From assembly GCA_964016885.1 (NCBI GenBank), contig OZ024753.1:40238001-40302000 (forward strand): a stretch of 64,000 nt of DNA, read 5' to 3'. The position numbers and the translations under genes are program-made. Positions 1 to 60,505 of the stretch are shown in pieces (position 1 is the first letter of the stretch; each line of letters begins with the position of its first letter). The notes beneath the pieces are model-generated. The model was not told where the DNA came from. It was given only the letters and a program-made list of their open reading frames with translations, and made no database searches. The stretch is from Eledone cirrhosa (lineage: Eukaryota).

Positions 1-1319
1 ATATATATATTTATATTATATATATATATATATATATATATATATATATTTATATATATATATATTTATATTATATATATATATATATATATTTATATAT
101 ATATATATATTTATATATATATATATATATATATATATATATATATATATATATATATATATATATATGGGATGGGTTATATATAAAGATATGTGCGGCC
201 AAAAAAAAAAAAAAAAAAAAAACACTGTATGATTACCCTCTTCACACACTAGCCCATGTTTACCCATAAACCTAGAGACCTGTGTTTAGGAAACTTATAT
301 GCATTAGGTGCAGCACCATTTAATTGTTAGTGCAAGAACTGCTATTGTGCAGCGGACATATAAAACATTACCAAACAACAAGTGATCTCATCGGATCCTC
401 ACATGTCAGACAAAACTCGTTTTTACAGCTGCACTTGTGTGATACTGTGAATAACATGAATAGTTGAAATAACGAACGAATGACGTTGTATGTGACAGTA
501 TCCGGGTGTTAGTATAGATAGAATTAAATATAACAGAATAGAATAAACACATACACAAACACATACATATATACATGTGTGTATGTGTGATTTTATATAT
601 ATATATATATATATATATATATATATATATATATATAATATAAGATCAAAAGATGGTTAAAGGAGTTCAATATATTTTATTATGCGCATTTCAAAAACAA
701 ACATCATCAAACAATAATATTTGTGTTTTCATCAGATAAAACAGGAGAACATGATATGAAGGCTAAAAAAAAAACACTTGTTGATAGTGCAGTTTTAAAT
801 CAACATATGAAAAGTGGTTTTAGATTGATGTGTGATATTGGGAAAAATATTTTATTTAGAGAGGGGGGGAGAGAAAAGGATGAAAAGGGAAGGAGATGAG
901 AGGGAGAGATGGGTGATAGAGAGAAAGAGATAGTTTTTATAACAGAGAGGAGATATATTTTATATAGAGGGGTTGAAAACCGTTGGAAGATACTGTATAA
1001 ATTAAAAATTTTGAAAATTAACGAAGGGAGGATATGTGCGAGGAAAAAATATATTATATTTAGGGAGGGGTGGGGGTGGAAAGGATGAAAAAAAGGGGAG
1101 GAGATGAGAGTGAAGGTGGAAAGGGAGAGATGGGTGATAGAGAGAAAGAGATAGTTTTTATAACTGAGAAAAAGATATAATGTTTTAATATAGAGAGGTT
1201 GGGAACCGTTGGAAGATAATGTATAAATTAAAGGAATTTGAAAATTAACGAAGGGAAATTATGTATGGAGATAGAGAGAAAAAAAAAAAAATAACGAAGG
1301 GAGATTATGTATGGAGATA

Positions 1320-2146
1320 TTATTCCTAAATTATTTTTTAGTGCCTTAAATAAATGCTTCCCTCCCTCACATATCTATAGTAAAATATTTAACAAACACA
1401 CCATTAAATTTTCGTATTCTACATCCTCCAATATTTCCAACATCATTTCTAAACACAACAACAAAATATTAAATACTAAATCTCTTCCTTCCAATATTGA
1501 ATCTCATAATAACAATAATAGTACTCCTGACGTCATTGTAAACCCTAGGCTAACTTCTGTAAACCCAAATGCAACGTCAAACACAACTTCGCTAAATGTT
1601 CATAATCCAACTCTAAATCAAGAAACTATTATTCCTATTATTCCTATCGCAAACAACTTCTCCAATCCAATTCCTTCTATAGATAACACTAGATCACTCA
1701 TTAATAATCTCTCTAATTGCAACTGCCGCATTAAAAATAAATGTCCTCTCAACAACCATTGCCTCGATAAAAACTTAATTTATGAATGTAAAATTATAAC
1801 TAGCACCAACTCCTTCACCTATTTTGGCTCCACTTCCACCTCTTTTAAAGCTCGTCTCTATAATCATCATTCATCTTTCAAATACAAACTTAAAAGAACT
1901 AACACTGCTCTCTCAGAACTCATATGGTCCTTAAAAGACAAAAACATTAAATATAACATCTTTTGGAAAAAGATTTCTTCTGCATCCTCGTACTTGAACA
2001 GTTCTCTATCTAAAATCTGTAATCTCTGCCTAAATGAAAAATTTACCATTATCTCTAACCTAGAATCCATAATAAATAGACGCTCGGATTTGTTTTCCAT
2101 CTGCCTGCATAAATTCCATAGAACTTTTCACAAAGTATACAGTTAA
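1320..2146 (+). pseudogene. PLE ORF 3' part: RT C-terminus/thumb, linker and GIY-YIG endonuclease
   Basis: FPPSH..KIFNKHTIKFSYS; CNCR..CPL..CL; LIY..YFGST..FKARLYNH; TALS.IW.LK; CNLCLNEK; INRR..CLH. The listed start (MYGD, 1307) comes from the inverted arm, so this is a fragment. Confidence 0.88.
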
Positions 2147-2202
2147 TATTCAATTCTTTATCAATTTAGAATCTTTTCTCAAAGGCACATATACATACAC
2201 CT

Positions 2203-2635
2203 CTTTAAAATATACCCATCTACCTTACTTTAAAGGGCATTATACACTCTATAGTACTCGTTTACTCATTTACCTCATCCTATCTTCTCGTAAAACAATA
2301 ACATTTGTTTTTGACATTTTGAATATTCATCCGCAATCATTATTATTTTTTTTCCCTCTATCATAAATCTTTTTAATCTCAATTTCATCCTTAATTTATT
2401 ATTATATATTTTTTTTAATATATACTCATATATTCTTTAAAATATACCCATCTACCTTACTTTAAAGGGCATTATACACTCTATAATACCCGTTTACTCA
2501 TCACCCTCATTATATCTCCTCGTAAAACAATAACATTTGTTTTTGACATTTTGAGTATTCATCCGCAATCATTATTATTTTTTCTCTCTATCATAAATCT
2601 TTTTAATCTCAATTTCATCCTTAATTTATTATTAT
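2203..2635. repeat. ~200-bp direct duplication in the PLE 3' UTR
   Basis: ctttaaaatatacccatctacc...ccttaatttattatt occurs at ~2203-2403 and ~2435-2635. Confidence 0.85.
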
Positions 2636-3393
2636 TTTTTTCTCCCCATCAACGAACTCATTATTAATACATATGAATTCAATATAAAAACTCTAACTTC
2701 ACATTATTTTTCTCAAATCCTATACATAAACTTTTTCTCTTTGCTAATTTTAAAATTCCTACATTTCTCCTTTTGAATATTCACCCACAATTATTATTTT
2801 TTTTTTTTTTTTTTTTTTCTCTCTATCTCCATACATAATCTCCCTTCGTTATTTTTTTCTCTCTATCTCCATACATAATTTCCCTTCGTTAATTTTCAAA
2901 TTCCTTTAATTTATACATTATCTTCCAACGGTTCCCAACCTCTCTATATTAAAACATTATATCTTTTTCTCAGTTATAAAAACTATCTCTTTCTCTCTAT
3001 CACCCATCTCTCCCTTTCCACCTTCACTCTCATCTCCTCCCCTTTTTTTCATCCTTTCCACCCCCACCCCTCCCTAAATATAATATATTTTTTCCTCGCA
3101 CATATCCTCCCTTCGTTAATTTTCAAAATTTTTAATTTATACAGTATCTTCCAACGGTTTTCAACCCCTCTATATAAAATATATCTCCTCTCTGTTATAA
3201 AAACTATCTCTTTCTCTCTATCACCCATCTCTCCCTCTCATCTCCTTCCCTTTTCATCCTTTTCTCTCCCCCCCTCTCTAAATAAAATATTTTTCCCAAT
3301 ATCACACATCAATCTAAAACCACTTTTCATATGTTGATTTAAAACTGCACTATCAACAAGTGTTTTTTTTAGCCTTCATATCATGTTCTCCTG

Positions 3394-3460
3394 TTTTATC
3401 TGATGAAAACACAAATATTATTGTTTGATGATGTTTGTTTTTGAAATGCGCATAATAAAA
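3394..3460 (+). ncRNA. Type I hammerhead ribozyme, family A
   Basis: ttttat-CTGATGA-long stem II-GAAA-tgcgca (palindrome)-TA-ataaaa; mirror copy at 675-741 on minus. Confidence 0.85.
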
Positions 3461-3602
3461 TATATTGAACTCCTTTAACCATCTTTTGATCTTATATTAT
3501 GCATACTCCAGTCCCACAAACTGTAGAGTGCTTCTTATCCGATATCTGCATTGCTTTATTGTACTACAATAAAACTCACCTCCTACATATATATATATAT
3601 AT

Positions 3603-3795
3603 AGGAATGAGTAGGACCCCAACGGCCGAGCTCAACCCGTTTCGACGGTTAATTCTGGACCAGAATTAGCCGTCGAAACGGCTTGAGCTCGGCCGTCGGG
3701 GTCCTACTCGTTCCTATTACCCACTCTACTACCCTAAGTATTGAGTAATTTGGTGCGTTATGGTCCACCTGGTTCCTTACCACATTTCCTTCGTT
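3603..3795 (+). mobile_element. Fold-back PLE-terminus-like element, family B (3' half of an HHR)
   Basis: ~55-bp inverted arms plus ~80-nt tail; GAAA-cggc..gccg-TC; copies at 27792 and 60302. Confidence 0.7.
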
Positions 3796-4060
3796 ATATA
3801 TATATATATATATATATATATATATATATATATATATATAAATATAAATTATCGAGAATCGCATTTCGGTCAACCAAATAACGAAAAACAACCTCCGAGA
3901 TGTGTGGCAAGTGCTCAATGATTCAGATGAACCAGAGCTATAACAAACGTTAAAGGCCAAACACACTGAGACGATGGTTAAACAATCATTCGCATAGCCA
4001 AAAAACGATCAAGTAATTCGGGTCAAACAATTAAAAAATATCTGTGATATATATATATAC

Positions 4061-59070: not shown

Positions 59071-59104
59071 ATATATATATATATATATATATATATATAC
59101 ATAT

Positions 59105-59232
59105 GTTTCCCACCATTCTCCTGATGAAGGGTTTATGCCCGAAACGTCGCCCCAACACCCCACTCTCAAGCGTCAACCTAATACCTACCACCTTTCGTAA
59201 CTGTACTCCTTGTTGTTGTTATTTACTTTTCC
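59105..59232 (+). mobile_element. Family K copy
   Basis: CTGATGA-agggtttatgccc-GAAACGTC..cactctcaagcgtcaacctaatac. Confidence 0.6.
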
Positions 59233-59276
59233 AAAACACACACACACACACACATATACATATATATATATATACA

Positions 59277-59710
59277 TTTTGGGATGCTCCCATACAGCTC
59301 TGAGTTTTTCATCCTCAGTGTATACTGATTAATGTTCAGAGCCATCCGCAGCATTCTCGTGTAGCACCCATCCACCATCTGAGTGAGTTTCCTGGTCAGT
59401 GTCCAAGTCTCAGACCCGTACAGCAGCACAGACTCCACTACAGCAATGAAGAGGCGGATTTTCAGCTCAAAGGTGACACAGAGGAGACTGAGGTTAGCTG
59501 GACATGCTCACCGACATCCAGAGTTGACATTGCACTCAGTGCTCCTTTGGGAGCCGCTACATGGACACACTAGAAGAGGAAGACCAAGGTTAACATATGT
59601 TGATGCCCTAAGGACAGATCGAACCTTGAACTGGTCGGTGGCGATGCGCGCGTCGCCAGCCAATGAACGTGGTGAGGGAGTGACCAATCGTCCTTGTATG
59701 TTATTTAACT
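59277..59710 (+). mobile_element. 5'-inverted RTE fragment fused to a family H end
   Basis: Minus 59277-59470 encodes ELKIRLFIAVVESVLLYGSETW..GSIPK; plus 59471-59619 encodes VTQRRLRL..ALRTD; then tcgaaccttgaac. Confidence 0.85.
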
Positions 59711-59759
59711 ATATATATATATATATATGTATATGTATATATATATATATATATATACC

Positions 59760-60120
59760 CAGGGAGTGTAAGTTGGAGTTACTGTAGGTTCACCCGGGTG
59801 AACACTCGATGTTTAGGTTCACTTCAGTGTCGAGGTGTAGAGCTAGACAGAGTGTATTATAGTTAAATAAAATAACAAGGACGATTAGTCATTGCCTCAC
59901 CACGTTCATTGGCTGGCGACGCGCGCCTCGCCACCGACCAGTTCAAGGTTCGATCGATATGCTTCCATTAACATTACAAGCGGTCTGACGAGCCGCGGAT
60001 TGCAGAGTCAGGTCGGATCAATGCAGATCGAACCTTGAACTGGTCGGTGGCGATGCGCGCGTCGCCAGCCAATGAACGTGGTGAGGGAGTGACCAATCGT
60101 CCTTGTATGTTATTTAACTA
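59760..60120. mobile_element. Fold-back element, family H, with variant HHR-like core at 59981-60066
   Basis: Arms ~59860-59955 and 60025-60120; ggt-CTGACGA-gccgc..gtggc-GATG-cgcgcg-TC-gcc. Confidence 0.7.
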
Positions 60121-60301
60121 TATATATATATATATATATATGTATATGTATATGTATATGTATATATATATATATATATGTATATGTATATATATATATA
60201 TATATATATATATATATATATATATATATATATATATATATATATATATATATATATATATGTATATGTATATATATATATATATATATATATATATATA
60301 T

Positions 60302-60505
60302 AGGAACGAGTAGGATCCCGACGGCTGAACTCTAGCCGTTTCGACGGCTAAATCTGGACTAAATTTAGTCCAGATTTAGCCGTCGAAACGGCTAGAGCTC
60401 AGCCGTCGGGGTCCTACTCGTTCCTATTACCCACTCTACTACCCTAAGTATTGAGTACTTTGGTGCGTTATGGTCCACCTGGTTCTTTACCACATTTCCT
60501 TCGTT
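60302..60505 (+). mobile_element. Family B fold-back copy
   Basis: Same arms and tail as 3603. Confidence 0.8.

Follow-up and report, generated by a model that had tools for sequence, protein, structure and literature searches.

The DNA analysed here (henceforth the window) is a 64,000-nt stretch of the 3.0-Gb genome of Eledone cirrhosa (assembly GCA_964016885.1, contig OZ024753.1, positions 40,238,001 to 40,302,000), which is AT-rich and of which 36% was masked as simple repeat. Short islands within its TA tracts carry hammerhead ribozyme motifs of 14 families, distinguished by self-BLAST and reference slices (A, D, N, F, I, J, M, B, H, K, O, P, S, and L), and the present report concerns their relationship to Penelope-like elements (PLEs). 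In each family, two fixed end sites, referred to as the short and the long end, lie approximately 55–100 nt apart downstream of the ribozyme, and TA repeats mostly come next; copies are found as stubs or as two arms joined head to head. Genomic loci that were fetched for comparison are given by L-numbers (e.g., L088).

Family A offers the longest view of an element: an inverted arm reaching the short end X (635..1307, minus strand; hammerhead at 681–735) is followed by the C-terminal part of an 821-aa Hydra-type frame for reverse transcriptase (RT) and endonuclease, belonging to a 5′-truncated copy (1322..2146, plus), and by a 3′ untranslated region (UTR) with the hammerhead of the pseudo-long terminal repeat (pLTR; 3394–3460) and a tail that runs to the long end Y (2147..3588, plus). 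A further A stub, consisting of hammerhead and tail, lies at 58872..59074 (plus), and a hammerhead of its relative P is found at 42129–42178 (42101..42212, minus). Family D is present in the window as stubs only, namely a stub of a diverged subfamily (9354..9498, minus), a head-to-head stub joined inside the hammerhead (10995..11157), a pair with a complete plus-strand hammerhead at 13312 (13249..13434), a subfamily copy with a compensatory stem I (13848..13985, minus; hammerhead 13933–13971), a pair with one short and one long end (14020..14327), a pair with complete hammerheads on both strands (16560..16813), a pair whose long-end arm is without a ribozyme and whose short-end arm holds its 3′ half (22699..22822), a subfamily pair with hammerheads on both strands (25840..26015), a 24-nt stub with its 5′ end at the predicted cleavage site (38959..38982, minus), and a diverged pair with a minus-strand hammerhead at 58280–58318 (58261..58368).

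Head-to-head pairs of family B occur at 3601..3796, where both arms are cut in loop II, at 27790..27984, and at 60300..60506, and a B subfamily pair with two short ends has microsatellite between its arms (7617..7861). Family F forms two pairs, the first with hammerheads on both strands (39654..39958) and the second at 39957..40194, as well as a stub (27471..27543, plus) that is fused to an arm of family S; the latter is a stub whose hammerhead has A at core position 4 (27367..27474, minus). The Neptune/Nematis-type family I is seen as a pair with a plus-strand hammerhead at 56126 (55874..56304), and the related family M as a stub with a weak stem I (38480..38720, plus). Hammerheads with a long loop II belong to N (28925..29110, minus; loop of ~100 nt; partial copies at 4190–4296 and 55688–55776) and O (27150..27336, plus). 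Family J contributes a hammerhead (42434–42462) and tail (42310..42500, minus), family K a diverged copy (24456..24558, plus) together with one partial arm and one head-to-head pair in which GAAA is mutated (59614..60122), and family L a minimal core that lacks helix III (59105..59235, plus; second copy at 16894–16965, minus). Family H, which differs from the others in the order of its blocks, is described further below. Fold-back or inverted repeats in (TA)n whose window copies have no hammerhead are additionally seen at 4360–4520, 25700–25790, and 45966–46094 with 46703–46831.

The initial annotation had claimed that hammerhead motifs are frequent in the islands of the TA tracts, and the counts bear this out. 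The word CTGANGA occurs 53 times in the window against 17.3 expected from whole-window shuffles, and the same figures were obtained with 200 shuffles confined to the non-repetitive islands; a type-I hammerhead descriptor matched 13 sites, as compared with a mean of 0.085 and a maximum of 1 in 200 island shuffles, and its relaxed form gave 15 matches against 0.48 in shuffles and none in the reversed window. Similarly, 40 position-chosen 10-kb pieces of the genome (400 kb in total) contained 58 descriptor matches versus 1 in the reversed control, which corresponds to ~145 motifs per Mb and extrapolates to ~4.3 × 10^5 motifs genome-wide (bootstrap range 2.8–6.1 × 10^5). Published counts, obtained with descriptors that differ from those used here, are 126,247 for axolotl and about 9,000 for Xenopus. 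A window so rich in simple repeat might be thought to yield chance matches or assembly artefacts of low-complexity DNA; nevertheless, the excess over the window shuffles and over the reversed 400-kb control, together with many dispersed copies bearing compensatory changes, leaves such an origin with a negligible chance of being correct. An Rfam scan of the window returned no family at gathering score, and no hammerhead stood among the 150 of 624 E-value rows listed, which were microRNA noise on fold-backs.

With regard to the individual families, the named sites were recovered for A (3400, 735, and 58877), D (10 places), N (28925–29110, minus), F (39654–40194), I (56126), J (42434–42462, minus), M (38544), O (27181), and K (24456 and 59614–60122), and all six of the stem-III palindromes that had been named are present in the window. 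To the families named, P, S, and L are to be added, giving 14 in all. A type-I core (CUGANGA or an accepted variant, GAAA, UH, and stems I–III) was identified by descriptor in A, P, D, B, N, O, S, and J, and by eye on genomic copies in F, I, and K; in M and L, stem I is only 1–2 bp long. Compensatory changes in stem I distinguish subfamilies of D, A at core position 4 is found throughout family S, helix III is a stable 3–5 bp in B, D, and S, and loop II measures 55–115 nt in B, K, N, and O. Several families had been regarded as partial or degenerate, and this description needs correction. In the window, all B copies are broken off within loop II; the intact ones, seen at L088, L128, and L176, have a U3-A8 core, a variant described in Schistosoma PLEs, with a stem I of 4–5 bp and a stem III of 4 bp beyond A15.1-U16.1; a pattern with CTGANGA close before GAAA gave only 58 mixed matches, which were chimeras or fold-back junctions, and this failure led to the U3-A8 reading. 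Family K is mutated only in the window, as core and GAAA are intact in most of the 30 loci shown. Family O does have C at core position 4 in its window copy, but the core is canonical in L187 and L196. DNA searches for copies of B and J returned no matches, their words being probably too common. Cleavage of these predicted hammerheads as dimers through the palindromic helix III, a published model with low in vitro activity, is plausible by analogy.

The proposed connection with PLEs was found in 11 of the 14 families, which adjoin RT/GIY-YIG-type open reading frames (ORFs) elsewhere in the genome, nine of them Hydra-type (A, P, D, B, F, N, O, K, and S) and two Neptune/Nematis-type (I and M). 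Full A units of 3896 bp are arranged in tandem, and the hammerhead and tail come right before their 821-aa frame; the C-terminal 274 aa of this ORF are present in the window, of which the last 145 aa are 100% identical in 149 of the 150 genomic matches listed, and young copies of A are identical in the endonuclease part. In D, a frame of 758–759 aa lies just downstream of the hammerhead and is followed by a long 3′ UTR and then the next hammerhead, with 4.7–6.3 kb between hammerheads. Endonuclease-coding DNA runs collinearly into the ribozyme at six loci in F, at L088 and L176 in B (L128 shares the UTR), at L079 in S, in most of 16 loci in N, at L245 and L251 in K, at L186, L105, L113, and L043 in I, and at L028 (identical to L080) and L133 in M. 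An inverted pair of P flanks an ORF in L168, and O is situated directly 5′ of a 770-aa frame.

The full frames of A, D, and O, whose proteins are 40–45% identical to one another, each consist of a single ORF with an RT followed by a C-terminal GIY-YIG-type endonuclease; those of P, B, F, N, K, and S are partial. All three full frames have DKT in place of DKG, a second motif in different versions (RWK in O, RWT in A, and RWR in D), and a CxCX5C linker with CxxC and CxH around conserved E and N, with no CCHH. The same linker is present in P, F, N, and K, while B and S were seen only for the last part of the endonuclease. These motifs follow Hydra-1_Obim when compared by eye, by which A, D, and O are assigned to the Hydra clade (PMC8557442, section 11). 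Families I and M are Neptune/Nematis-type on account of a CX4CxxC linker and CCHH-like residues in a C-terminal endonuclease after the RT, and there is a weak RVT_1 match upstream. As nine families are Hydra-type and the remaining two are related to each other, the initial view that many unrelated PLE lineages target (TA)n was right about PLEs and (TA)n and overstated their independence. Another Neptune-type PLE, at L222:1580–4900, matches GIY-YIG in Pfam and has a U3-A8 hammerhead ~1 kb past the stop.

The same collinearity bears on whether the islands could be independent non-coding retrozymes that spread via circular RNA, with PLE ORFs as mere neighbours. True non-coding tandem units do exist here, as exemplified by H (538 bp), a 467-bp array in L226, and a 592-bp array in L193; however, in eleven families the sequence continues collinearly via a 3′ UTR into an ORF or lies immediately 5′ of an ORF, and full A and D units carry that same hammerhead and tail either where the ORF begins or a little way upstream. 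This rules out the retrozyme explanation for families A, D, F, B, N, K, I, and M; it is highly unlikely for the islands as a whole, though it may still hold for J, L, and the neighbouring family Q. Likewise, the description of the islands as mini-elements applies to H, which alone was shown to be non-coding; most are 5′-truncated stubs of autonomous units of 3.9–6 kb. The two arrays (L226:3300–5700 and L193:250–2500, the 592-bp one with a U3-A8 core) are head-to-head stacks ending in (TA)n, i.e., retrozyme-like units with a PLE insertion signature. Family Q appears in the window at 54910–55250 (minus) as the downstream part of a hammerhead-bearing repeat with microsatellite inside, and its full motif is found in L041 and L198.

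The ends of the arms provide the evidence on how these copies were inserted. Of the arms, 37 of 45 in A, 65 of 99 in D, and 59 of 79 in B have a TA/TG repeat after their end; the others read on or diverge. Among 115 adjacent head-to-head pairs listed in eight families, 97 were resolved and 18 set aside (16 unresolved because of reading on, excessive divergence, or an intermediate end, 1 duplicate, and 1 pair of separate insertions); the resolved pairs were tallied by hand and assessed by binomial tests, and in 93 of them a short end is combined with a long one, in 4 both ends are short, and in no case are both long. Unselected DNA, that is, the window, flanks, and the 40 position-chosen pieces, gave the same picture in 26 pairs (25 short with long, 1 short with short, and 0 long with long). 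The hairpins with a ribozyme on both strands that the initial annotation had proposed, as present here in D at 16560..16813 and 25840..26015 and in F at 39654..39958, are most simply a by-product of such head-to-head insertion. Arms that begin no more than 3 nt from the predicted cut are few (4 of 181, and 1 of 45 in the unselected set), the larger set being biased to intact ribozymes; the sole such case among the 45 is the 24-nt D stub at 38959..38982. Ribozyme-cleaved RNA was accordingly rejected as the usual template, and the scarcity of arm 5′ ends at the cleavage site is in line with an uncleaved template.

The short-with-long rule likely reflects twin priming. A PLE of another kind, PAc, nicks both strands of AT-rich DNA in vitro, and its RT starts at two internal sites that bound the tail, with ribozyme cleavage being dispensable for insertion, according to Frangieh et al. 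2024 (PMC11167929). By this mechanism, the endonuclease would nick both strands of TA-rich DNA, the RT would start one complementary DNA (cDNA) at the short site and the other at the long site, both downstream of the ribozyme, and each copy would proceed through the uncleaved hammerhead and usually stop within about 50–200 nt, whereupon the two aborted cDNA ends would join to give a fold-back; the hammerheads would, as the literature has it, trim long or tandem precursor RNAs weakly, either as dimers via the palindromic helix III or with the help of protein. Alternatively, a single cDNA could snap back on its own hairpin and copy itself to a fixed site, so that the short end would mark integration or resolution in place of a second RT start. 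In favour of a snap-back, the junctions are frequently located within ribozyme stems and loops or close to them (in B, the arms meet in loop II), and Craig et al. 2021 (PMC8557442) report an inverted 5′ copy with a tail at one end only and ascribe the tail to endonuclease-mediated resolution. On the other hand, the long arm may be either member of a pair, arms that reach several kb are unequal in length (L073, L074, and L077), arms stop at the short site even when no partner is close by, and the two RT starts mapped in vitro match the tail, all of which make the snap-back unlikely.

Chimeric stubs were also observed, in which an arm of one family joins that of another without a spacer, in many cases at a short word common to both (L116, L122, L131, L144, L154, and window 27367–27543); these suggest that templates were switched between PLE RNAs or that fresh junctions received a second insertion.

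Family H had been listed as a partial type-I motif and proves to have a permuted arrangement of blocks instead. A head-to-head pair at 4656..5020 contains the permuted folds 4722–4854 (minus) and 4883–5015 (plus), with predicted cuts after 4790 and 4947, respectively; a second subfamily at 5009..5242 (minus) has a full fold at 5066–5198 and a predicted cut after 5136; a short head-to-head pair at 13528..13711 is without the cleavage block; and a stub at 58479..58699 (plus) has a full fold at 58520–58651 and a predicted cut between 58581 and 58582. The unit measures 538 bp, and all 25 loci chosen for a full unit span 1.07–3.19 units, with TA on the 5′ side in 20 and on the 3′ side in 21 of them, and with a longest ATG frame of 53 aa; H also shares the two-end insertion pattern. 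The cleavage block (S), GAAA (G), and CUGANGA (C) follow one another in S-G-C order with stems I and III intact, and a descriptor of this order gave 4 matches in the window, 42 in 1.31 Mb of overlapping loci (~40 of H type and 2 chance-like), and none in reversed controls. The strand after CUGANGA pairs with the strand before GAAA at only 0–2 positions; both helix II strands pair instead with a single upstream strand, the two halves of which are separated by a 7-bp hairpin, and stem III is prolonged by a helix of 6 bp. A first reading of H as a non-ribozyme was superseded by the S-G-C fit, and type II, type III, SECIS (selenocysteine insertion sequence), and twister folds gave no fit by eye. 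Further S-G-C families or subfamilies with other stem sequences occur at L149:880–1130, L025:4010–4130, L102:340–430, and L146:28–162.

Covariation in H was evaluated on 21 of 23 non-redundant rows, two with deletions having been left out and the window copy being used for L229. In these rows, the proportion of paired cells is 93.9% and 13 of the 33 pairs show changes in both partners, a level that 0 of 500 shuffles reach, although these shuffle figures are not probabilities, given that the structure was drawn from the same, related sequences; slid partners pair at 22–44%. In 13 more diverse rows that include L146, 16 of 33 pairs covary, and every helix contains one or more of these. Stem I and stem III both show covariation, position 7 is free to vary, intact copies carry A or C at position 17, and U16.1-A15.1 is the same in 21 of 21 rows.

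A comparable layout was recognised in Naiads, for which Craig et al. 2021 (PMC8557442) give no canonical hammerheads and eight elements marked "half core" (HHR_half_core, File S1, S5). Two parts of the consensus file of that study were inspected by eye, covering four fitting 3′ ends and Naiad_Omin. The ends of Naiad_Hpol and of the preceding record (Naiad_Hcon by table order) read as complete C-S-G hammerheads, with a stem I of 5 bp, a stem II of 5 bp closed by G-C, a stem III of 7–10 bp, and an extra helix of 12–14 bp. Those of Naiad_Ovul and its preceding record (Naiad_Obim by order) have the H layout in S-G-C order, with a stem I of 5 bp and an upstream strand with hairpin that supplies a G pairing with C11.1. 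The Naiad_Omin record had no such permuted motif, and a search of this genome with the Naiad_Ovul core pattern gave one match, which lacked the S block, and no Naiad ORF or Naiad-type copy. The four-strand S-G-C layout is thus common to H, Naiad_Ovul, and the preceding record; the likeness is one of layout, and sequence identity is not established.

H is probably a working hammerhead in S-G-C order that would cleave, its helix II being completed by the extra upstream strand. It is doubtful, by comparison, that H is a structured element for protein binding or RT start whose hammerhead words are kept by descent and no longer cleave. Such a loss would suit the failure of the bases after CUGANGA to form helix II, a block that Eckert et al. 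(PMC10085705) treat as unbroken, the occupancy of 10.1-11.1 by U-G, U-A, or unpaired bases, and the finding noted above that another PLE can insert in vitro without ribozyme cleavage. The retention of all three catalytic blocks together with a free position 7, A or C at position 17, and the invariant U16.1-A15.1 speaks for cleavage, as do the covarying stems I and III and the two nematode Naiads whose C-S-G hammerhead is complete by eye, including G10.1-C11.1. Extending the working hammerhead to the Naiads, it is on balance somewhat favoured that active hammerheads of the non-circularly permuted kind are present both in H and in the Naiad half-cores (C-S-G in nematode Naiads; four-strand S-G-C in H and octopus Naiads, with a helix II strand from outside the CUGANGA block), in which case H would descend from Naiads as a non-autonomous element, its insertion resembling that of Hydra elements. 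If this is true, Naiads do not lack hammerheads, and permuted hammerheads gain a known animal host and a job. No paper was found that links Naiads with permuted hammerheads or non-circular permutation with retrotransposons, although the supplements of Eckert et al. and of a bioRxiv preprint may bear on the matter.

Taken together, the islands are best understood as 5′-truncated, often head-to-head, ribozyme-bearing ends of at least 11 PLE families and of H, a non-coding hitch-hiker; two RT events from opposite strands likely placed them in TA-rich DNA, and we assign this reading a probability of roughly 0.86. Several points weigh against it. Families J, L, and Q are without a linked ORF, and P, S, and O are each linked to one through a single locus. 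Because Pfam and PDB sequence searches did not recognise the Hydra-type proteins, their Hydra identity is taken from motifs compared by eye and not from a tree. The preference for TA is read from the flanks alone, 18 of the 115 pairs were set aside, and the queries behind most loci favoured intact ribozymes and a long end. The direct core-adjacent pair of H is only 85–90% formed, and G10.1-C11.1 is absent. Moreover, hammerhead activity is here a prediction from sequence.

The 3′ UTR of D deserves separate mention. In 8 UTRs from ORF to ribozyme, taken from 12 fetched regions, a TA/TG mosaic of 1.0–3.2 kb stands between short unique segments, always with TG on the sense strand and with 13–41 stretches of at least (TA)6; alignment is close in the flanks and poor in the mosaic, the homology of which is judged from position, strand polarity, and a five-way alignment. 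No such TA/TG repeat is found in the UTR of A, and at L023 an A element is inserted in a D mosaic, so that D, which carries copies of the target repeat of its clade in its own 3′ UTR, can supply landing sites for insertion. Long D copies are uncommon, as their unique UTR segments gave no matches in 400 kb and ~3,900 search candidates. D was considered as the maker of most genomic microsatellite and rejected, since the same 400 kb are 11% TA/TG/CA repeat; the rarity of long copies leaves D with only a small share. No paper describing a repeat-bearing tail of this type was found.

The window contains other repeats as well. A dispersed repeat found at 14 places, often as partial tandems (5756–5960, 25073–25409, 37655–38083, 42812–43208, 46875–47447, and nine more), is presumably a tRNA-derived short interspersed nuclear element of the kind known from octopus genomes. 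The 3′ ends of a non-LTR retrotransposon, in which no hammerhead was seen, adjoin TA repeats at 23334–23592, 24602–24808, 39426–39645, and 59462–59620; we take it to be RTE-like from its C-terminal motif. Long compound minisatellites (CA-rich, ATACC-type, and GGT/GTT-type) occupy 19900–21600, 28290–28690, 29650–31450, 32230–33640, and 47750–49270.

In comparison with known systems, most of what was found amounts to an already described clade that has radiated densely. As described in PMC8557442, the Hydra clade, including Hydra-1_Obim, shares with the present families the single ORF with RT and C-terminal endonuclease, DKT, the CxCX5C linker, CxxC and CxH around E and N, the absence of CCHH, the canonical pLTR hammerhead, insertion in (TA)n, tandem and inverted copies, and the tail at one end. 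The same paper lists one cephalopod family, whereas nine Hydra-type families were found in this 64-kb window, an extension of a clade of which a few families had been described; published Hydra elements are generally short (under 3 kb, against units of 3.9–6 kb here) and have tails of 30–40 nt as compared with ~55–100. The 1–3 kb TA/TG mosaic of D and the U3-A8 and A4 core variants fixed in whole families are likewise unlike the published clade. Searches for octopus hammerheads did not turn up this system, nor did a 2026 octopus repeat annotation, which mentions neither hammerhead nor Hydra in the passages covered. With published type-I PLE hammerheads, the present ones have in common the type I topology, palindromic helix III, an unpaired base before helix II, the U3-A8 variant, opposite-strand motifs 100–700 bp apart, and mostly truncated single elements; they differ in the stable helix III of B, D, and S and the long loop II of B, K, N, and O. 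The density of ~145 per Mb, set against published values of some thousands per genome that were obtained with differing descriptors, suggests several hundred thousand hammerhead motifs in one genome.

The PAc Poseidon element of Anolis (PMC11167929), as far as the consulted text goes, resembles these families in the two RT starts bounding the tail, the nicking of both strands in AT-rich DNA, and the uncleaved template; it belongs to a different clade, and the short-with-long rule, counted here over eight families, is not reported for it in that text. The rule ties the two in vitro RT starts to one coordinated insertion event and explains PLE fold-backs. As regards H, no hammerhead of its wiring was found in the literature searched. 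Type-SGC and type-CSG hammerheads (Eckert et al. 2023, PMC10085705) are alike in the S-G-C order, covarying stems I and III, and extra arm-holding helices; the helix II of H differs in being formed through an upstream strand that pairs with both sides and has a hairpin between, and its C block is not unbroken, so that H is not a plain type-SGC member. Furthermore, the SGC/CSG examples published there come from environmental sequence, whereas H resides in an animal retroelement. Metazoan non-LTR retrozymes, for their part, also consist of a non-coding tandem unit with one ribozyme per unit (PMC7229834; 10.64898/2026.07.22.740005), and their 150–450 bp units with a classical type-I hammerhead contrast with the 538 bp, the 1.1–3.2 units per locus, the non-canonical ribozyme topology, and the PLE-type two-end insertions in (TA)n of H. 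The wiring of H also provides a concrete way to read the Naiad half-cores, so far unexplained.

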